A stretch of DNA of 14,573 bases, from the IMG/VR virus record IMGVR_UViG_2645727715_000004; one strand, given 5' to 3'. Positions 2,498 through 14,573 of this stretch are shown here, piece by piece. Both the position numbers and the translations under genes were made by a program. This DNA is from a virus (lineage: Duplodnaviria; Heunggongvirae; Uroviricota; Caudoviricetes). The notes below the pieces were generated by a model. It saw only the letters and a list, made by a program, of their open reading frames with translations, ran no database searches and was not told the DNA's origin. How positions within the stretch are numbered: the stretch's first letter is position 1; the number at the start of each line of letters is the position of its first letter.

Positions 2498-2513
2498 GGA
2501 TTACTCCGGATAT
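2194..2513. repeat. Right arm of the 320-bp inverted repeat; the operon-proximal tail-fibre 5' end plus the last 16 nt of the upstream gp48-like gene
   Basis: Exact reverse complement of 1..320; at 2514 it continues into gp48-like coding sequence that is unique in the window. Confidence 0.95.
2195..2220 (-). other. Candidate serine-invertase crossover site, right copy in inverted orientation
   Basis: Reverse complement of 2195..2220 is identical to 294..319. Confidence 0.55.
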
Positions 2514-3085
2514 TTAAAAATTACGTAGGTATGCGACGGGCAGAGTTTGTTAAGCACACATTCGACAACTGTGTCGCCCCAGATACGCAGTGCGGAATCA
2601 CAGGGATCGCCACATGTCATCCAGGTGGTGTTGGTGGCGGCTGGCATGTTGACCTGCCAGTAATACCGCCATTCAGGCGCGTTCACAGCGTCAGTACAGG
2701 CCGATGAGCAGGTGAACGTGCTTTTGTCGTATCGCGTGATGGTGGCATCTGGTCTGCCCAGGGCAGCAAGCTGTGCAAGATAAAAATCCTCGTTGATGCC
2801 GCCCGCCAGGTTAACCTTCGCATCCAGCCGTTGCTGACGCTGGCGAAGGGTCTGTGTCCCTGCGGGAATACATTCATCCGGCAGACCGCACAGACGCTCC
2901 CAGCGGTTTATCAGTTCAGTGGTGGTGCGCGGATCCAGCTCCCGCATCAGGGCATCCGCACGCTGATGAACGCGGGTTAATGACGGTGCCGCACCGGCAA
3001 TCGCCGGATCGCTGGCTGACCACGCCGGACCGGGGGGCAACAGTGCCGACAACAGACGGATGTAATCATCGTTTGTCACGTCCAT
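2501..3085 (-). CDS. Baseplate/tail protein, Mu gp48-like (P2 gpI-like family)
   Basis: 194-aa ORF in the conserved position between the J-like baseplate gene and the fibre; start overlaps the upstream gene's stop. Confidence 0.65.
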
Positions 3086-4134: not shown

Positions 4135-4550
4135 GCGTTATCGCACTCCACAGATCATCAAAAGAAATCATTACCGGTCCGTCACGACGCCAGAGGGTGA
4201 TACTGTTACCCAGCTCATTAATCCCGGTGCGGCGGATATCCAGATCAATACGGGACACCACGCCGTCATCAGTCATCCATTGGAGGCATTCGCGGATATA
4301 CCCCCTTACTGTCTGCACCAGCTGATTGGTCAGTTTGCTGCGCTGAAGCAGCCACAGTCGGGAGCCGTAACGGTCATTCTGTCACCGCAGGCCAGGTATC
4401 CCCCCACCATCCCATCGGGACGTCGGCGTTGTCATCAGGCTCCGCCCGCCGCCAGGTAAACAGGGAAATCACCACGGCGCGGGTCAGCGGATCCAGCGGT
4501 GCGCTGGCGCAGGTGCGTTTACCGTTCACCGTCAGCCACAGTTCCATCAT
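4121..4550 (-). CDS. Baseplate protein, Mu gp46-like (gp25/GPW-like), interrupted by a frameshift near 4374..4382
   Basis: ATG at 4550 opens a 58-codon frame ending TGA at about 4376; the +1 frame continues (QNDRYGSRLWLLQRSKLTNQLVQTVRGY...) to the stop at 4121. Combined length about 143 aa matches the family. Confidence 0.55.
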
Positions 4551-7559: not shown

Positions 7560-9393
7560 TTACCTGCCAAAGCGCGTATAGCCAACATCATGGCTGACAT
7601 CAAAACCGCTGGATCGCGTTTCCATAACCCGCATACCCGGAGGCGAATTCACAAAAGAGACCTTGATCTCACCATCAACTTTTGGCGCAGAAGCTTTGTT
7701 AATCATGAAGGGATTCGGGCCTGTGGCATCGGAGGCGTTGTTTGATTGAGCCGGATCTACCGCCGGATAAGGTGTGTATCCCCGCGCCGGTATTCCCGTC
7801 CCATAAGCATCATAAGCACCCGCGCCCCACTGCGCAGAGTTAATGGCATCGACCGTGTCACCGGAACTGTCGGTAAACCACTCAATAATTGGCTTCAGCT
7901 TGTCCCACATATCCTGAAACCACTTAACAACCGGTCCCCAGTTATTGATCACTATCCCCAGCGGCGACCAGGCAAAAACCTTCTTAAGAAGTTCCCAGCC
8001 AGCCTCAAAATAAGGACCAATGGTTTCCCAGAGTTTCTTAAAATAAGGTCCGACAACATCCCAGTTAGTGATAATTAATCCCGCAGCCAGGCTATCGCCG
8101 TCGCAATCATGCCAATCGGCGTCATCGACATAATCCTGCTGACAATACTGATGGCACCGCCAACGCCCATCAATCCCAGTTTCAGAATCGCAAGACCGGC
8201 AGCAAGCCCGACGACGCCGCGAATAACCCGGGGATTTTCATCCGCAAACTTCGTGAATTTTTCCCCTAACTCCCCCAGCCATTGCGTGATATTTTTGGCG
8301 TCACCAGAAAATGCGCCGCCAATAGCCGCAAGGCCGTTAGTTGCGGTCCCCGTCATTGCCTCCCACAGGTTGGACAGCGTTCCAAGCTGGGCCTGAACAC
8401 GTTTATTCAGGCTGGCCTGTTTATTCATCTTCTGCTGGATCTGATCGTAGCCATCCTTTCCTTTATCGATTAGTGCATTGACCACCTGAAGGGTTTCGGC
8501 ATCATCACCAAATATTGCCTTAAGTACACCTGTTCGCTTAACGTCTGTCAGTTTTCGCAGCTTTGCCAGTTGCTTAAACATGTTATCAAGACCGCCAAAA
8601 CTCCCTTTGCCGTCAGTAAAATCGAGCTGCACTCCGAGTTTCTGGCGGGCCATGACTTTATTGACGTCCCTGATTTTCTTAACGCTTAATCCGGACTGGA
8701 TAACTTTTCGCAGGGCATTACCTGCCGACTCCCCGTTCATCCCCATCTGATCCATCATGACGCTGATAGGGGCAAGGCTCTGTGCAGCCTGAAGTCCGTC
8801 CTTATTCACCATCTTCAGAACAGAACTGGTTTTAGTGAAGAAGGACAACATGTTGGTATCGTCAACGCCCAGATAAAACGCCTTCTGGATAGTGTCGAAC
8901 AGCCCCATCATGTCTTCTGACGCCGTTCCGGTAGCATCCTGCATCTTTGCAGCAAACTCAGCAGCCGCTTCCGGTGTTTTTTTCAGTTGTACCGCAAGAT
9001 AAGCTGTCGCTTTACCCACACCACCAAGAATGTTTTCTGCCGGGATCCCTGACGCACCAGCATCTGCATCATGTTCTGGAAATCAGCCGTTGTACCGGGT
9101 AGCTGGTTACCCAGGCCAATAGCCAGTTTATTGATGTCCTGAAAGCTCTTTCCAACCTCGCCGTTCGCATCCATCATAGCGACTTTCAGCCCGGTGGCGG
9201 CGTTTTCCTGATCAGCATAAGATTTCAGGGAAAGCGTCAGACCCGCTGCCAGTCCGCCACCAAGCGCCAGCCCACCCTGTGACGCTTCTTCCGCCTGGCG
9301 TTTAAATCCCCGGATTTTCTTTTGCATTTTCGACAGCGCGGGAGAAAGCCTGTCGACACCGGTGATCAACGCCTTAAGCTCAAATTCAGCCAT
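7560..9393 (-). CDS. Tail tape measure protein, interrupted by two apparent 1-nt deletions (about 9042..9054 and 8071..8080)
   Basis: Three consecutive minus-strand ORFs (8983..9393, 8075..9019, 7560..7952) form one roughly 612-codon reading frame if one base is restored at each junction (VRQG|IPAENILGG and WLRD|LIITNW). Shows the hydrophobic segment and W-rich C-terminal repeats typical of tape measure proteins. Confidence 0.7.
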
Positions 9394-9804
9394 GTGTGCG
9401 TTTCTCCTGCTCTATCCTGTTTGCCTGACTGACCAGCAAGGGAATTTCACTGATCGGCATATTCAGCAATTCGAAGGGATTAATGCGCCAGTAGCTGGCG
9501 CAGTCAAAGAAGCGATCAGTGAGGTATTCAGCCGTCAGGCCTGGAGGAAAAAACCAGCCACAAGCCACGCCGCTGCATTCAGGTCTGCCGGAGACATCTG
9601 GTCGACAGAGCTTTGCGGCACTTTCGCCAGCCGCACAATGTATTTCGACACCACATGCGCCAGAAGTCTGACGGACTCATCCTGATTCATCTGGTAGGGA
9701 TACCCCAGCTCGCGGACATCCTTCCCGGTGGGCTCATCAAACTCCAGTACGGAGAGTGTCTCACCATGAGCGATAATCGGTTTCTTTAACTCAAGCTCTT
9801 TCAT
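9386..9804 (-). CDS. Tail assembly chaperone frameshift fusion product (gpGT / gpE+E' analogue) made by programmed -1 ribosomal frameshift
   Basis: The -1 frame ORF 9386..9568 overlaps the 3' end of the chaperone ORF and ends 8 nt inside the tape measure start; slippery heptamer T_TTT_TTC lies in the overlap. Confidence 0.65.
9535..9804 (-). CDS. Tail assembly chaperone (lambda gpG / P2 gpE analogue)
   Basis: 89-aa ORF between tube and tape measure genes; carries the slippery site at its 3' end. Confidence 0.75.
   Translation of the reverse strand: MKELELKKPIIAHGETLSVLEFDEPTGKDVRELGYPYQMNQDESVRLLAHVVSKYIVRLAKVPQSSVDQMSPADLNAAAWLVAGFFLQA
9547..9553 (-). other. Slippery heptamer T TTT TTC for the programmed -1 frameshift
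   Basis: Minus-strand codons GGT TTT TTC in the zero frame; plus-strand gaaaaaa at 9547..9553. Confidence 0.6.
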
Positions 9805-10160
9805 TACTGGTAATCCCCTTCTTCACCGTGGAACTCAAGATCAACCGTGCCTTCTTCGGCATTATGGTTCGCTTCTCCGTGCAGCCAGGCGGACGACAAT
9901 ACATAGACCTGACCGTTCGCCAGCTCGGCAGTGATAGTCATCTCATCAGACGAGGTGATTTTGTTCACCGGAAAATTCTTCGGCACCTTGAAAGTCCCTT
10001 TGACATAAGGCGCACGGTGAGTTTCCTTGCGGTCCACTGAACCGTCCAGGCCGATGATGTCATCATTGACCGTCCTGTTCATGGGCACCTCAATGCCGCC
10101 GGTCAGCGATAGCTGTTGACCGTCAATTTTGAAATAACAGGTTCCCCCGATACGGGCCAT
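9804..10160 (-). CDS. Tail tube protein (Mu gpM-like)
   Basis: 118-aa ORF immediately downstream of the sheath gene, start overlapping the sheath stop. Confidence 0.75.
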   Translation of the reverse strand: MARIGGTCYFKIDGQQLSLTGGIEVPMNRTVNDDIIGLDGSVDRKETHRAPYVKGTFKVPKNFPVNKITSSDEMTITAELANGQVYVLSSAWLHGEANHNAEEGTVDLEFHGEEGDYQ

Positions 10161-11656
10161 TATGCAGACTCCTCTGAATACTGAAGACGGAACTGGTTAA
10201 CCACGGCAAAGACACGCAACTGGTTAACATAGTCAGGCGGGAACAGCGTGTTCAGGCGGTTCGGATCGCTGGCATCACGCTCCACAACCAGGTACTGCTT
10301 AAACAGTTCGTAGTTTTCCACGATCCCCGCACGCTCAAGCTGACGGTAGGTTGCCAGCAGTTCCCCTTTGATCACCGCCGGTGTGACAATCGCCTGACCG
10401 GGACCAAAGCGGGTACCGTCGCTGGCAAGCTTGTGACGCCCGTACTTACTGGTAATGACGGATTTCAGTTTGCGCAGTACATACGCGCTGGTATGCAGCG
10501 TCTCGCTGTCGAGGTAGCTGTTATCCGCAACACCGTAAGCGTTTTTCCTGTACGTGGTGACATCACGCTGAATGCGCAGCACCCCGCTTTCGACATACGC
10601 CGTTGCCACGCCATGAGACAGCAGGGTCTGTTGTTCGGTCATCGTGAACCGTTTCCCCTTCGGCGCAGGCAGCATACCCACCAGTTCACCGGTCTGCGTG
10701 GGACGTGCCGGATCGTTGCGAATAAACACCGCTGCGCGGGCGGTACGGCTTGCCGCCAGCTCGTCGGCAGGCGTCTGGGTCTCTTTTTCGTATCCCGCCA
10801 GGGTAATGTGCTGCTGGTTAAACTGGTCACCTGCGGTCACCAGTTCTGACAGCGTGCCGGTCTTTGCCGTATACACATGACCATACAGCTGACGCGCATA
10901 GCTCCAGCGACCGCTGGTATCGTTCATCTCGGTCACCAGCGTGTTAACGGAGGCCGTGTCGTTGAACGGCAGGCCGATATAATCAAACGGCTCATCCGCC
11001 ATTGCAGCCACCGCGCCGGTGAGAACCGGAGCGCCCGTTCCGGCGATCCCCGTCGCCACGGCAATCTGTACGCCCGCTGGCAGCACTTCGCCCCCACCAA
11101 AGCCGTAGTAATTGAGGCTGACAGGAATTTCATTCCCGCAAAGCCCCTTATGACGCGCGGTCAGTGTGACCACGCCTGCCGAAGATGAGGCAGTAAACGG
11201 CAGGGTCGGAACGGCATTGATGGCATCTTTGATACTGCTGGCAATCGTCGCGACGTTATCGCCGTTGGTCACCGGTGCCTGCACGCGGGTACGTCCCACA
11301 TAAACATTCACCGTGCCGGTTTCGGTTGCCGCGCCGGTCACCGTCAGCGTAACTGTTGCCGCCGCGCCCGTGGATTCAGGAACGGCAATCACATACAGTT
11401 CACCAAACGGGTCGGTCTGGCGATAAGCCTCGACCATACGCGCCAGCTGACTTCCCGCACCACAAATCTGGCGTGCATAGTCTGCCGATGGCATCAGCAC
11501 CAGACTGTTGGCAACAATCTCTGCACCGTTATTGGCATGACCAATCAGCAGCGATGCTCCGCTGTCCTGTGCAGTATTCGCCGCCGAGTTATCCATTTCC
11601 GCATAAAAAATCGGAACCAGCGTATTCGACGGAATGGTGTTAAAGCTTATCGTCAT
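10160..11656 (-). CDS. Contractile tail sheath protein (Mu gpL-like)
   Basis: 498-aa ORF, N-terminus MTISFNTIPSNTLVPIFYAEMDNS typical of Mu-like sheath proteins; followed by tube and chaperone genes. Confidence 0.85.
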   Translation of the reverse strand: MTISFNTIPSNTLVPIFYAEMDNSAANTAQDSGASLLIGHANNGAEIVANSLVLMPSADYARQICGAGSQLARMVEAYRQTDPFGELYVIAVPESTGAAATVTLTVTGAATETGTVNVYVGRTRVQAPVTNGDNVATIASSIKDAINAVPTLPFTASSSAGVVTLTARHKGLCGNEIPVSLNYYGFGGGEVLPAGVQIAVATGIAGTGAPVLTGAVAAMADEPFDYIGLPFNDTASVNTLVTEMNDTSGRWSYARQLYGHVYTAKTGTLSELVTAGDQFNQQHITLAGYEKETQTPADELAASRTARAAVFIRNDPARPTQTGELVGMLPAPKGKRFTMTEQQTLLSHGVATAYVESGVLRIQRDVTTYRKNAYGVADNSYLDSETLHTSAYVLRKLKSVITSKYGRHKLASDGTRFGPGQAIVTPAVIKGELLATYRQLERAGIVENYELFKQYLVVERDASDPNRLNTLFPPDYVNQLRVFAVVNQFRLQYSEESA

Positions 11657-11810
11657 CGGTATTCACCTTTTCATTCACGCGCCGGATATCACCCGCTGCT
11701 TCACGGCGCAGCCAGTAGTTGTTCTCATCAACATTTCGCCCCTCGGCGGGCAAAAGGTCGCCGCGGGCAGGGTCAGGCACTGACCGCCCTTTAACAGGTT
11801 TCACAAACAT
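11640..11810 (-). CDS. Small ORF (56 aa) upstream of and overlapping the sheath start; not in the supplied ORF track
   Basis: Hand translation: ATG at 11810 nine nt after the preceding gene's stop, MFVKPVKGRSVPDPARGDLLPAEGRNVDENNYWLRREAAGDIRRVNEKVNTDDDKL, stop TAA 11640..11642. Fills the otherwise empty 160-bp gap. Confidence 0.45.
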   Translation of the reverse strand: MFVKPVKGRSVPDPARGDLLPAEGRNVDENNYWLRREAAGDIRRVNEKVNTDDDKL

Positions 11811-11818
11811 GAAGATTC

Positions 11819-12379
11819 TCAGGAAGGAAGGGTTATTTCGGTGTGATGTTCGATATCGCCGTCAGGCCCGTTACCGGGATCGAGATAATCAACATCAATC
11901 GCCAGCGTTCGCAGTTCATCCAGACTGTTCAGGTCATCCTGCTGGCGGGTATCGTCTTCGGTCAGCTCGCTGATGACCGAAAAATCGAACTGATAAATCA
12001 GCTCATGACGATTCAGATCCAGCAGCGTGCCGCCGTCATAGGTAATCGGGTTACCGCACGCTTCCGGGTTCCAGCCCAGCAGGGCCTTAAAGAGCATCTG
12101 CCGGACATCGTCCACCACATCATACGAAGCAAACTGACCGCGCTCATCACGCCCGTTACTCAGTATGACAACCACGGAGAAGCCCTCTTTCAGCTCCTGC
12201 CAGTAGTCGGTCTGGCTTTTGTTTTCTCCCGGAGAATCATCACCCGGTACAACATATGCCGCCGGGAGTTTCAGCTTTCCGACCTCCGGCAGATTTTTGA
12301 ACTGGGCCGCGCCTGCAACCCGGTTTTCAAAATACGGACAGCGGGCACGCAGTGCAGCAATAACAGGCGTCAGTTTCAT
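11819..12379 (-). CDS. Putative neck / tail-completion (tail terminator-like) protein
   Basis: 186-aa ORF between the gp10-like neck gene and the sheath; function assigned by position only. Confidence 0.45.
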   Translation of the reverse strand: MKLTPVIAALRARCPYFENRVAGAAQFKNLPEVGKLKLPAAYVVPGDDSPGENKSQTDYWQELKEGFSVVVILSNGRDERGQFASYDVVDDVRQMLFKALLGWNPEACGNPITYDGGTLLDLNRHELIYQFDFSVISELTEDDTRQQDDLNSLDELRTLAIDVDYLDPGNGPDGDIEHHTEITLPS

Positions 12380-12881
12380 CTGTGTCGTCGCTCCGGCTTC
12401 AGTGATTTACGCAATTCCCGCGCCAGAAAATAGCGTGTCCAGCTGCGGTTCTTTTCAAGCGTTTCCACCATGAAGTTATTACGTGGAGCCAGTCGCCAGC
12501 CGCTGCCACCGGATGCACCACGATGATGGCTGCGACGACGCTTTGCCCCTCGCCTCACGCCATAGAACAAAAAAGCCGGATAAAAATCACCGGTGATACG
12601 GCGGTTTCCCTCTCCATTACGCTGGTTAGGGGCTATACGTGCCATAAAACCAGGGCGATGTTTACTGGCTCTGGGTACCATGTAACCAATCGAACGAGCC
12701 AGGCGTCCGGTCTGATAACCGGGGTTTTCACCCGGTGCCGACCGCGCACGGCGCATCACCAGCGACGGGCATCACGCATATGACGCTGACCAATCGTGAC
12801 AAACGCCCGCCGGACACGGGCGCGGTTAAAGCGCATCTCCGCGGGCTGCTGAAAATCAACGTGCAAAAAGGAAGTCGTCAT
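12376..12881 (-). CDS. HK97 gp10-family head-tail joining protein, interrupted by an apparent 1-nt deletion near 12757..12766
   Basis: ATG at 12881 gives MTTSFLHVDFQQPAEMRFNRARVRRAFVTIGQRHMRDARRW then stop; the -1 frame continues as VMRRARSAPGENPGYQTGRLARS... to 12376. Restoring one base makes one roughly 168-aa protein. Confidence 0.55.
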
Positions 12882-13266
12882 TGTTGCCTCCGTGACTCTG
12901 CCCACATTCGCCCAGCTCCGTACACTCCAGCAGCAGAAAGCGCCGCGCCCCGTTCAGATCGCGCTGACGTTTCACCCGGTACACACTGTCACCGCAGACC
13001 ACCTCATAATCAGCGGTGATCCCCCGGCGGTAACGAATGGTGATGTAATGGGTGATGGCGTCCCCGGTCTGCGCGGTTTCCTGCCAGGTGGTGGCACTGG
13101 TCTGGATAACCTTCGCCCATGTCCGGAACGTAACCGGGTATTGAGGCTCCACGCCAAAGTTATCCGCGGGCATATCCACCCGCTGGCGGATCAGGACGCG
13201 TTTATTCAGTTCACCGGGGTCCGGCAGAATGTAGGTTGCGCTGGTCTGCGCCTGACGAATTTTCAT
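12856..13266 (-). CDS. Head closure / head-tail adaptor protein
   Basis: 136-aa ORF following the connector gene with overlapping start/stop; size and position fit. Confidence 0.6.
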   Translation of the reverse strand: MKIRQAQTSATYILPDPGELNKRVLIRQRVDMPADNFGVEPQYPVTFRTWAKVIQTSATTWQETAQTGDAITHYITIRYRRGITADYEVVCGDSVYRVKRQRDLNGARRFLLLECTELGECGQSHGGNNDDFLFAR

Positions 13267-13586
13267 TGCGGAAAGTACCTGTACGGGCCGACAAGCCAGC
13301 CAAAACTCTGCGGCATGTCGAGTTTCTCCACTTCCGTAACCGACGAGCGGTTTTCGTAAAAATGGCTGATAAGCATCAGCATCCCCAGACGAATATCATC
13401 CGGCAGGTGCAGCCCGTCCGGATCGCTGTCCGGAATGGTTTCATCCGGTGCATAGAGCTTCCGGTTCAGATACGTTTCCGTCCGCTTTTGTGCCGCACAG
13501 GCCAGCAGTTGCAGATGGCGGTCATCAGCATCGAAATCCTCATCCAGCCGGAGTTGGGCTTTAATCTCTTCCATTGTCAGAAGCAT
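13263..13586 (-). CDS. Head-tail connector protein (HK97 gp6-like)
   Basis: 107-aa acidic ORF, MLLTMEEIKAQLRLDEDFDADDRHLQLL..., typical of gp6-like connector proteins; conserved position after the capsid gene. Confidence 0.65.
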   Translation of the reverse strand: MLLTMEEIKAQLRLDEDFDADDRHLQLLACAAQKRTETYLNRKLYAPDETIPDSDPDGLHLPDDIRLGMLMLISHFYENRSSVTEVEKLDMPQSFGWLVGPYRYFPQ

Positions 13587-13588
13587 AC

Positions 13589-13789
13589 TCAGCCCTCTTT
13601 ACTGGTCGTGGCTTTTTTCTCTTTTGCCGCTTTACTGCTTTTTGCACTGATTCCGCGCTCTGCTAACCCGGCCTGAAGTGCAATCTCCTGCACCCGGGCA
13701 GGAAGCGCCCCGTCGTCATACTCACCGGCCCGAATGACCTCAACACGCATACCGTCCGGTGACCATTTCAGATCTTGTTTCAGGATCAT
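13589..13789 (-). CDS. Hypothetical small phage protein (66 aa, lysine-rich C-terminus)
   Basis: ORF with SD-like GGTGAAG upstream of ATG at 13789; sits between capsid and connector genes. Confidence 0.45.
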   Translation of the reverse strand: MILKQDLKWSPDGMRVEVIRAGEYDDGALPARVQEIALQAGLAERGISAKSSKAAKEKKATTSKEG

Positions 13790-13811
13790 GATTCTTCACC
13801 CGTCAGAACAG

Positions 13812-13831
13812 GGGGCGCGGTTCCGCGCCCC
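13812..13831 (-). terminator. GC-rich hairpin just after the major capsid gene; possible attenuator or RNA-stability element
   Basis: 9-bp GC stem GGGGCGCGG/CCGCGCCCC (13812..13820 / 13823..13831) in the 49-bp gap after the capsid stop; no clear U-tract on the minus strand. Confidence 0.35.
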
Positions 13832-13838
13832 TGAGTGA

Positions 13839-14573
13839 TTACGCCGCTGCAATCTTCAGCAGTTTGATGGCCTGCGAATCGACCAGCATCCCGCCGGTGC
13901 GCTTGGTGGTATAAAAACCGACAAACGGTTTATTGGTGTACGGGTCACGCAGAATGCGGGTGCCGATACGGTCAACGATGGTGTAACCCCGTTTGAAGTT
14001 ACCAAATGCAATGGCTTTCGCATCAGCGGCGATATCCGGCATCTGTTCGTTTTCAGCGATACCGTAACCCGCCAGAGAGGACGGCTGCCCCAGTTCCAGC
14101 CCCGGACGCCACAGATAGTTACCCTCGGTGTCTTTCAGCAGACGGATGGCAAACAGGCTGTTGTTGTTCATCATGAACTTCGCGCCAGTGCGGTGTGCCT
14201 TACGCAGCGTGTAAATCAGTTTGATAATGGCGTCTGCGGTCACCGCGGTCGCTTCGCCGGATACAATATGCTGAAGTTTGCCGAACGCCCGGACCTTATC
14301 GGTTTCATCAGTAGATTCATACGCCAGGAACCCTTTTGGCTTCTTGGTACCATCGCCGGTGGTAAAGGCAATTTCTTCCTGTTCGGCAAATTCGGTCGCC
14401 AGCTCGCTGTTGATCCAGGCCTCCACGTTGAAGAAGGCATCGTCCAGCATTTTCTGGGTAGCCTGCGGGTTGCCGTAGATTTCCCCCATGAGAGGTTCAA
14501 TCAGCTCCAGTCTGGAGGTGGCAGTCTGGGATCGCGTATCCGTTACCCCCACCCATCCGGAAGCCGTACCGCC
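13839..14573 (-). CDS. Major capsid protein, HK97 family (5'-truncated; continues beyond the right edge)
   Basis: C-terminal region shows the GNFKRGYTIVDR and RILRDPYT type motifs of HK97-fold capsid proteins; the frame stays open upstream of the listed M to base 14573. Confidence 0.85.
   Translation of the reverse strand, partial: GGTASGWVGVTDTRSQTATSRLELIEPLMGEIYGNPQATQKMLDDAFFNVEAWINSELATEFAEQEEIAFTTGDGTKKPKGFLAYESTDETDKVRAFGKLQHIVSGEATAVTADAIIKLIYTLRKAHRTGAKFMMNNNSLFAIRLLKDTEGNYLWRPGLELGQPSSLAGYGIAENEQMPDIAADAKAIAFGNFKRGYTIVDRIGTRILRDPYTNKPFVGFYTTKRTGGMLVDSQAIKLLKIAAA

Follow-up and report, generated by a model that had tools for sequence, protein, structure and literature searches.

Genomic context of the open reading frame

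The question raised by this locus is whether the apparent gap between the tail terminator gene and the tail sheath gene of a contractile tail module carries a protein-coding gene and, if so, what its product contributes to the tail. The window, i.e., the whole analysed stretch of 14,573 nucleotides, belongs to an SfV/SfI/SfII-like prophage of E. coli. The original prediction placed a 56-codon ORF on the minus strand in the gap before the sheath gene, and this frame was found to run exactly from 11810 to 11640 (171 nt; ATG at 11810, TAA at 11642-11640; translation MFVKPVKGRSVPDPARGDLLPAEGRNVDENNYWLRREAAGDIRRVNEKVNTDDDKL). The sheath gene starts with the ATG at 11656, which gives the 17-nt overlap with the stop side of the ORF that had been claimed. 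The ORF is absent from the list of ORFs of at least 60 aa because it is only 56 aa long, as the prediction had also said. An open frame at 11640-11810 is not evidence by itself, because three plus-strand ORFs (49-85 aa) span the same stretch. The gap had been called the only sizeable one in the tail module, which proved incorrect: a second apparent gap lies at 9394-9534, and there a -1 frameshift extends the tail chaperone, so that this stretch codes as well. The features of the region are collected in Table 1.

Table 1. Features of the terminator-sheath region and of other tail genes in the window.
Feature	Position	Strand	Evidence or remarks
DUF2635 / Mu gp38-family CDS (56 aa)	11640..11810, stop included	-	ORF, PF10948, phrog_208, SfV orf10, dN/dS, AF2
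Overlap of DUF2635 CDS 3' end and sheath CDS 5' end (different frames)	11640..11656	-	17 nt
SD-like AAGGTGA for the sheath gene, within codons 48-50 (K-V-N) of the small ORF	11663..11669	-	dG -4.3 kcal/mol
Terminator stop TGA (11821-11819) and 8-nt spacer without a real SD; likely termination-reinitiation site	11811..11821	-	dG -2.7 kcal/mol
Tail terminator gene, Mu gp37/K type (upstream neighbour)	11819..12379	-	PF23840, E=4e-26; 98.9% identity to SfV orf9
Tail sheath gene, Mu gpL type (downstream neighbour)	10160..11656	-	PF04984, PF17482, PF17481; 98% identity to SfV orf11
Tail chaperone	9535-9804 and -1 frame ORF 9386-9568		slippery T TTT TTC
1-nt indel relative to SfV, gp46-like baseplate gene	4383
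1-nt indels relative to SfV, tape-measure gene	8090 and 9047
1-nt indel relative to SfV, orf8 Neck1/tail-completion gene	12763

Over 1.1 kb centred on the ORF region, identity is 96.7-98.1% to these Shigella and E. coli phages (SfV, SfI and SfII type) and 99.0-99.3% to chromosomal E. coli prophages among the matches listed. All four single-nucleotide indels shift the reading frame, and three of the four are losses of one base in short runs of G or C, while the closest E. coli genomes carry an intact tape-measure gene of 1836 nt. The indels are either homopolymer errors of the source assembly or marks of a decaying prophage copy. The DUF2635 ORF is intact in the window despite these frameshifts in tail genes.

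Family identity and purifying selection

The homology search of the 56-aa product, proposed with the original prediction, gave a match of 61.7 bits to the Pfam family DUF2635 (PF10948), whose gathering score is 26.6 (E=5.2e-17, profile positions 1-45 of 46), and to PHROG 208 (E=3.8e-26); no NCBIfam model matched the product. In a tblastn search against Mu, residues 3-54 aligned with the Mu_38 CDS at 42% identity (E=1e-6). The product is 98% identical (55 of 56 residues) to that of SfV orf10 (NP_599042), which is annotated as 'similar to phage Mu GP38', and the core residues P5, D13-P14, P21, G24, V27, W33 and R35-R36 are all present in the protein of the window. An exhaustive phmmer search of the family (E<=1e-3) yielded 252 clusters at 50% identity. 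The locus is present in 1081 of 5426 complete E. coli genomes, and every E. coli match among those listed carries the PGAP/RefSeq label 'DUF2635 domain-containing protein'. The records of phiP27 and SfIV contain the sequence but do not annotate the gene.

Selection was analysed on 44 gap-free codons of 15 orthologues, ranging from SfV to phages of Burkholderia and Citrobacter. The frame and its ATG are kept in all 15, pairwise dN/dS values lie between 0.06 and 0.47, and differences per site are about twice as frequent at third positions (0.55) as at first (0.27) and second (0.26) positions. The ORF is under purifying selection. Across 110 divergent members of the family W33 is invariant, and conservation reaches at least 90% at P5, D13, P14, P21, G24, V27, R35 and R36, whereas beyond approximately residue 45 the members are low-complexity and variable in both sequence and length.

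Homology, selection and the conserved position described below agree in identifying the ORF at 11640-11810 as a bona fide protein-coding gene, the SfV-type orthologue of Mu gp38, so the claim of a genuine small gene in the terminator-sheath gap stands. Databases have for years contained this gene, along with its family and position, as SfV orf10, Mu gp38 and Pfam DUF2635. The word 'unlisted' is therefore right for the ORF track on which the prediction was based and wrong beyond it, since SfV orf10 and RefSeq PGAP annotate the gene. The finding is the correct rescue of a sub-threshold ORF and the re-finding of a known, annotated gene, not a discovery; its lesson for annotation is that size thresholds drop a true gene.

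Conservation of the locus in Mu-type tails

The gene order of terminator, DUF2635, sheath, tube, chaperone and tape measure is kept across 12 phages: Mu, SfV, phiP27, BgVeeders33, phiNP, PG1, phiAP1, PBb002, a Vibrio phage, MuM16-2, YPCBV-1 and Pmp9. These syntenic phages have differing heads, of the Mu type, the HK97 type or the lambda gpD/gpE type. As different head modules are combined with the same order of tail genes, the DUF2635 gene travels with the Mu-type tail module.

The conservation of the gene upstream of sheath genes, a check that had been suggested together with the prediction, was assessed in a census of IMG/VR seeded with three sheath alignments, in which all ORFs were searched with a DUF2635 HMM. 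Of the 178 non-redundant Mu-type sheath loci for which upstream sequence was available, 174 (98%) carry the DUF2635 gene as the immediate upstream neighbour of the sheath gene; in 173 of them it ends at most 80 nt from the sheath start, and in the remaining one the distance is about 130 nt, or 120 nt when the refined start is used. The frame is kept in all examined relatives with upstream DNA except four loci. In these four (L190, L208, L216 and L236) neither a DUF2635 gene nor any small ORF was found between terminator and sheath, and no DUF2635 match was found anywhere in the flanks (up to 10 kb). Four lineages of Mu-type sheath lack the gene, so DUF2635 is not indispensable. For phage XM1, the terminator and the sheath are numbered consecutively as gp5 and gp6, apparently with no gene between them.

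With refined start calls, the stop of the DUF2635 gene overlaps the start of the sheath gene in 156 of the 174 loci. By class, these junctions are -4 nt (70 loci), -17 nt (43), -1 nt (33) and -11 nt (10). The 17-nt overlap seen in the window is the SfV-clade version of a general tight junction and not a family-wide feature. On the other side, the 8-nt spacer is the commonest class of spacing between terminator and DUF2635 genes (58 loci). DUF2635/gp38 is among the few near-universal genes of Mu-type contractile tails, and it is one without a place in the published atomic models.

Translation signals

The original prediction read the arrangement of the ORF and the sheath gene as a sign of translational coupling. 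The geometry of a coupled pair, i.e., overlap or close apposition, is present at both junctions of the small ORF. The SD pairing of the sheath gene is moderate, and that of the small ORF does not rise above background. In figures, the pairing upstream of the small ORF (-2.7 kcal/mol) equals the mean of random sequence (-2.75 kcal/mol), and the values for the sheath and tube genes are -4.3 and -8.6 kcal/mol. Bacterial ribosomes are capable of scanning and re-initiation. From the background-level SD we infer that the small ORF probably depends for its translation on re-initiation after the terminator stop 8 nt upstream. In most relatives the sheath SD lies within the last codons of the small ORF, which explains the recurrent K/G/E-rich endings of the ORF. 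Judged by these signals, coupling of the DUF2635 gene with the sheath gene is consistent with the comparative data.

Predicted structure

AlphaFold2, run with an alignment of 110 sequences, predicts an autonomous alpha/beta mini-domain of 45 residues followed by a short disordered tail (residues 46-56). The mean pLDDT is 88 and the pTM 0.69, and residues 1-40 average at least 95. The modelled fold consists of a strand (2-5), three two-residue bridges, a helix (31-39) and a second strand (42-45), followed by the tail of low confidence. Searches of PDB sequences with the single sequence and with a 111-sequence profile returned nothing related, and Foldseek against the PDB gave no match at E<1 (best E=1.7). 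Its top matches, YqbF (2hjq), ribosomal L9 N-domain-like folds and a GroES strand, were set aside as generic resemblance among small alpha/beta proteins; a scan of all 110 members (E<=10) gave no sequence-level link to YqbF or to any other Pfam family. An RNA-binding regulator with a fold like the N-terminal domain of L9 was considered and dropped, the net charge being about zero and the fold matches insignificant.

The top match in BFVD was J7FAS5 of Agrobacterium phage 7-7-1, which superposes over 44 residues with an rmsd of 1.8 A (TM 0.64, probability 1.0). This protein is gp125, of 68 aa, and is encoded between the terminator gene gp124 and the sheath gene gp126. Its match to the DUF2635 HMM is weak (10.9 bits), and we treat it as a remote positional homologue.

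Virion data and proposed role

No paper giving a function was found in the literature on DUF2635 / Mup38, and there is no mention of gp38 in the SuMu proteomics paper. In the whole-virion cryo-EM study of Mu, gp38 is among three 'probably structural' proteins left unresolved, and the terminator-tail map, at 3.5 A, shows gp37 capping the last sheath ring with its C-terminal hairpin (PMC11915804). Mass spectrometry of the 7-7-1 virion, which covered all stop-to-stop frames and picked up proteins of 3.2 and 4.3 kDa, detected gp124, gp126 and gp127 and did not detect gp125 (PMC3517404). The models of the 7-7-1 neck, terminator, sheath, tube and collar (3.0-3.6 A) do not contain gp125 either (PMC12796354). 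The virion data of Mu and 7-7-1 argue against an ordered, stoichiometric structural role. These absences are negative evidence and come from Mu and from a remote homologue, and a virion protein that is flexible, low in copy number or lost on purification would escape such methods.

The explanation we favour, though by a modest degree of belief, is that the product is an accessory factor of tail morphogenesis which acts at the terminator/sheath step, is non-stoichiometric in the virion and is translationally embedded in the terminator-sheath block. The identity part of this explanation is held with confidence; the part concerning the role is weaker. The data show that the gene is real, to which family it belongs, its synteny, the purifying selection on it, the predicted fold and the conservation of its junctions; coupled translation, the role in assembly and the binding partner are the inferred elements. 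The DUF2635 gene would be read off the same late mRNA as its neighbours in the tail module, and ribosomes would re-initiate 8 nt past the terminator stop to translate it. Its 3' end contains the ribosome-binding site and the start codon of the sheath gene. The product would then act as an accessory factor on the terminator/sheath step of tail assembly and would not become a stoichiometric, ordered part of the finished virion. A tail assembly chaperone of the G/GT type was considered and rejected: the slot between tube and tape measure is already filled, and the DUF2635 gene has no slippery site.

Several points stand against an assembly-factor role. The long relatives with fn3, PKD or fibre-like parts, described below, fit an anchor better than a chaperone, and the curated GenBank record of Mu gives gp38 another name, 'putative sheath terminator protein'. 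Moreover, the frameshifts in several tail genes mean that the tail module of this particular prophage may be non-functional. The mini-fold, the adjacency to the sheath gene, the absence from virion data, the rare fusions to Ig domains and the rare lineages without the gene narrow the range of hypotheses.

Alternative explanations

An open frame could arise by chance in a non-coding regulatory gap that holds a promoter or an RNA element, given that this GC-rich stretch abounds in short ORFs and that three on the plus strand overlap this one. This reading is refuted by the conservation data, i.e., the Pfam and PHROG matches, the selection and the synteny, and it retains practically no probability; no sigma-70-like promoter was found in 9500-14573, gap included, and no Rfam family matched in the terminator-sheath gap at E<=1. 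Neither of the two outcomes that were to refute the original prediction, a frame that relatives do not conserve and evidence of a promoter region in the gap, was observed. A translated ORF might also serve as a leader or spacer, whose translation sets that of the sheath gene by unfolding the mRNA and delivering ribosomes, the peptide itself being unimportant. In most loci the ORF abuts or overlaps both of its neighbours, which would suit such a leader, as would the way in which the sheath SD in the last codons shapes the composition of the tail (endings such as ...KQGGE, ...KKEA and ...RKGEK). However, residues 1-45 are strongly conserved and include an invariant Trp, dN/dS is well below 1, an autonomous fold is predicted with confidence, and the DUF2635 module is also found far from any sheath gene, which makes a pure leader very improbable. 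We hold it equally doubtful that the product is a sheath terminator capping the top sheath ring. The name in AF083977 says so, albeit with no evidence given, and the gene does sit between the terminator and sheath genes. Against this, the last ring in Mu, XM1 and 7-7-1 is capped by the tail terminator's own C-terminal arm or beta-hairpin, no further protein is modelled at that ring in the three phages, comparisons by PDB sequence, profile and Foldseek revealed no similarity to T4 gp15-type proteins in sequence or fold, and four Mu-type tails do without a DUF2635 gene.

A more serious competitor, although still an unlikely one, is a virion-attached docking module, with the DUF2635 domain bound somewhere on the neck or tail of the Mu type: the short forms would be a bare anchor or clamp with a disordered tail, and the long forms would tether Ig-like, adhesin or fibre domains. 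The main argument comes from long relatives, in which an N-terminal DUF2635 domain and a Pro-rich linker are followed by fn3, PKD, a fibre-like motif or other domains. One of them (P0158) consists of DUF2635, a Pro-rich linker, fn3 and a further ~250 aa, and its gene lies just after that of the head-tail adaptor. A DUF2635-PKD protein (P0192) is encoded in the connector cluster of a phage in which the terminator and sheath genes abut; at locus L025, where the connector cluster holds such a DUF2635-PKD gene, no small ORF lies between terminator and sheath, which speaks for docking. Two relatives have a fibre-like motif, P0252 and P0215; the gene of the latter belongs to the tail-fibre region, where it follows a Mu Gp48-like one. 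Another (P0152) adjoins a Laminin_G_3 protein, and P0225, with a long disordered tail, occupies the canonical position. Genes of long forms stand beside neighbours annotated as Laminin_G_3, F5/8-type-C (discoidin) or 'virion structural protein', and the variable, disordered C-terminal tails of the family fit an exposed location. Ig-like and lectin-like domains of phages are hallmarks of particle-surface proteins, and the former, as Fraser et al. are said to have described in 2006, occur on virion structural proteins. The associations with fn3, PKD and LamG therefore make the DUF2635 module in the long-form phages look like a docking domain. On the other hand, long forms make up only ~8% of the family representatives listed, no Ig-like domain (fn3, PKD, Big) was found in the 56-aa protein of the window, gp38 is unseen in the Mu virion maps and gp125 in the maps and virion MS of 7-7-1, and a tightly bound domain of 45 aa at C6 or helical sites should give extra density.

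A tentative reading, to which we assign a minor share of belief, takes DUF2635 as a portable docking module of 45 residues for an unrecognised site on the Mu-type tail or neck. In most phages it may work by itself, clamping transiently or in a labile manner at the terminator/sheath step, and in some uncultured phages it may be joined by Pro-rich linkers to fn3, PKD or fibre-like domains, so that the particle carries adhesins. If true, the portable module would be a new small accessory of the 'minimal' contractile tail that was missed in the models of Mu and 7-7-1. The favoured accessory-factor explanation and the docking explanation have in common that both infer a partner for the protein among the components of the Mu-type tail or neck.

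Comparison with known systems

The closest counterparts are SfV orf10 and its orthologues in SfI, SfII and ST64B (Sb12), which are the SfV-type relatives of the ORF. SfV orf10 has the same length, the same 8-nt spacing after orf9 and the same 17-nt overlap with the sheath gene orf11, and its product differs by one conservative substitution (E47 in the window, K47 in SfV). Unlike SfV, the prophage of the window has a different head module and frameshifts in other tail genes. Mu gp38 (Mup38) occupies the same slot, between K/gp37 and L/gp39, and shares the core motif KP..G..v.DP......l..eG......yW.RRl..GDV, followed by a low-complexity tail; it differs in its length of 67 aa, in its overlaps of 14 nt with gp37 and 4 nt with the sheath start, and in having an annotated RBS. 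Phage 7-7-1 gp125 has the same layout of a folded module and a basic, Lys/Pro-rich tail, but its phage is lytic and is not Mu-like outside the tail.

The terminators T4 gp15, P2 gpS/gpR and Mu gp37 share with the DUF2635 product the neighbourhood of top-of-tail completion. The product is about one-third of their size, has no similarity to them in sequence or fold, and is not at the sheath cap in the solved Mu-type tails. In the organisation of its gene, the locus resembles the overlapping, coupled pairs of the late operons of tailed phages, in which the stop likewise lies within or beside the next start and the downstream RBS lies inside the upstream coding sequence. It differs from such pairs in that the sheath is needed far above the terminator, with 180 copies of the former against six of the latter in Mu (PMC11915804), so that independent initiation at the sheath SD would also be needed.

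The DUF2635 gene and its relatives

The DUF2635 proteins typically end in ...KQGGE, ...KKEA, ...RKGEK or ...TKGE, as seen at 11640-11680 of the window and at the equivalent position in the related loci L002-L023. The Shine-Dalgarno of the sheath gene, which normally lies within the final codons of the DUF2635 genes, shapes these endings. Part of the "variable tail" is thus under constraint at the RNA level and not at the protein level.

The gene is intact, yet missing from the records of phiP27 and SfIV, and is thus called inconsistently even in reference genomes. In the phiP27 record, an empty gap of 167 nt separates L43 from the sheath gene L44. The coordinates of the analysed features are presented in the table.

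Coordinates of DUF2635 genes and of disrupted or overlapping reading frames
Feature	Sequence	Position	Strand	Remarks
DUF2635 gene	phiP27 (L014)	2501-2662		intact, unannotated in record
DUF2635 gene	SfIV (KC814930/NC_022749)	7619-7786		intact, unannotated in records
Long-form DUF2635 gene	L024	3036-4244		
Long-form DUF2635 gene	L025	1093-1620		
Long-form DUF2635 gene	L026	1580-3793		
Long-form DUF2635 gene	L028	2958-3473		
Long-form DUF2635 gene	L029	2964-3356		
Tape-measure gene	window	7560-9393	minus	broken into three frames by 1-nt indels vs SfV
orf8 Neck1/tail-completion gene	window	12376-12881	minus	two frames after 1-nt indel vs SfV
gp46-like baseplate gene	window	4301-4547	minus	frame shifted by 1-nt indel vs SfV
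60-aa ORF, -1 frame	window	9386-9568	minus	overlaps end of tail-chaperone gene 9535-9804

The DUF2635 gene was not found in four Mu-type sheath loci from IMG/VR (L190, L208, L216 and L236; flanks up to 10 kb). In three of them (L190, L216 and L236) the stop codon of the terminator gene and the ATG of the sheath gene overlap, while in L208 the two genes are separated by a spacer of about 85 nt with a terminator-like hairpin and a T-run. In long members of the family the DUF2635 module is N-terminal; a Pro-rich linker comes next, and then fn3, PKD, fibre-like or unknown domains. Their genes are located in connector or fibre clusters, not ahead of the sheath gene, and L025 has no small ORF between its terminator and sheath genes, which adjoin directly.

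In the lytic, flagellotropic Agrobacterium phage 7-7-1, the gp125 gene (L257, 14733-14939) lies between the terminator gp124 and the sheath gp126, and gp125 can be regarded as a remote homologue of DUF2635 by its position and predicted structure. The protein is missing from the virion MS (PMC3517404) and from the cryo-EM models (PMC12796354) of this phage.

Integrity and mosaicism of the prophage

The comparison with SfV revealed four 1-nt indels in the window (4383, 8090, 9047 and 12763) that disrupt three genes. Three of the four are sited in short G or C runs, where bases are missing in the window. The tape-measure gene is whole (1836 nt) in the nearest E. coli genomes, so either the sequencing introduced errors or the prophage is defective.

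The nucleotide similarity to SfV stops at ~13373, within the minus-strand region ~13270-14573; the adaptor-like ORF (13263-13586) and SfV orf6 share only 62% identity, and the identity between the capsid-region ORF and the major capsid protein of SfV is about 27%. The prophage thus combines an SfV-type tail and neck with a different head module, and the mosaic junction is located near 13270-13373.

Tail-chaperone frameshift region

The second apparent gap in the tail module of the window (9394-9534) is coding, not empty. The sequence at 9553-9547, T TTT TTC, is a canonical slippery heptamer, and the stop of the 60-aa ORF overlaps the tape-measure ATG at 9393. The arrangement of this ORF, which sits in the -1 frame, and the tail-chaperone gene is that of the classic G/GT-type programmed frameshift. 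The verified shift at the equivalent place in Mu is -2.
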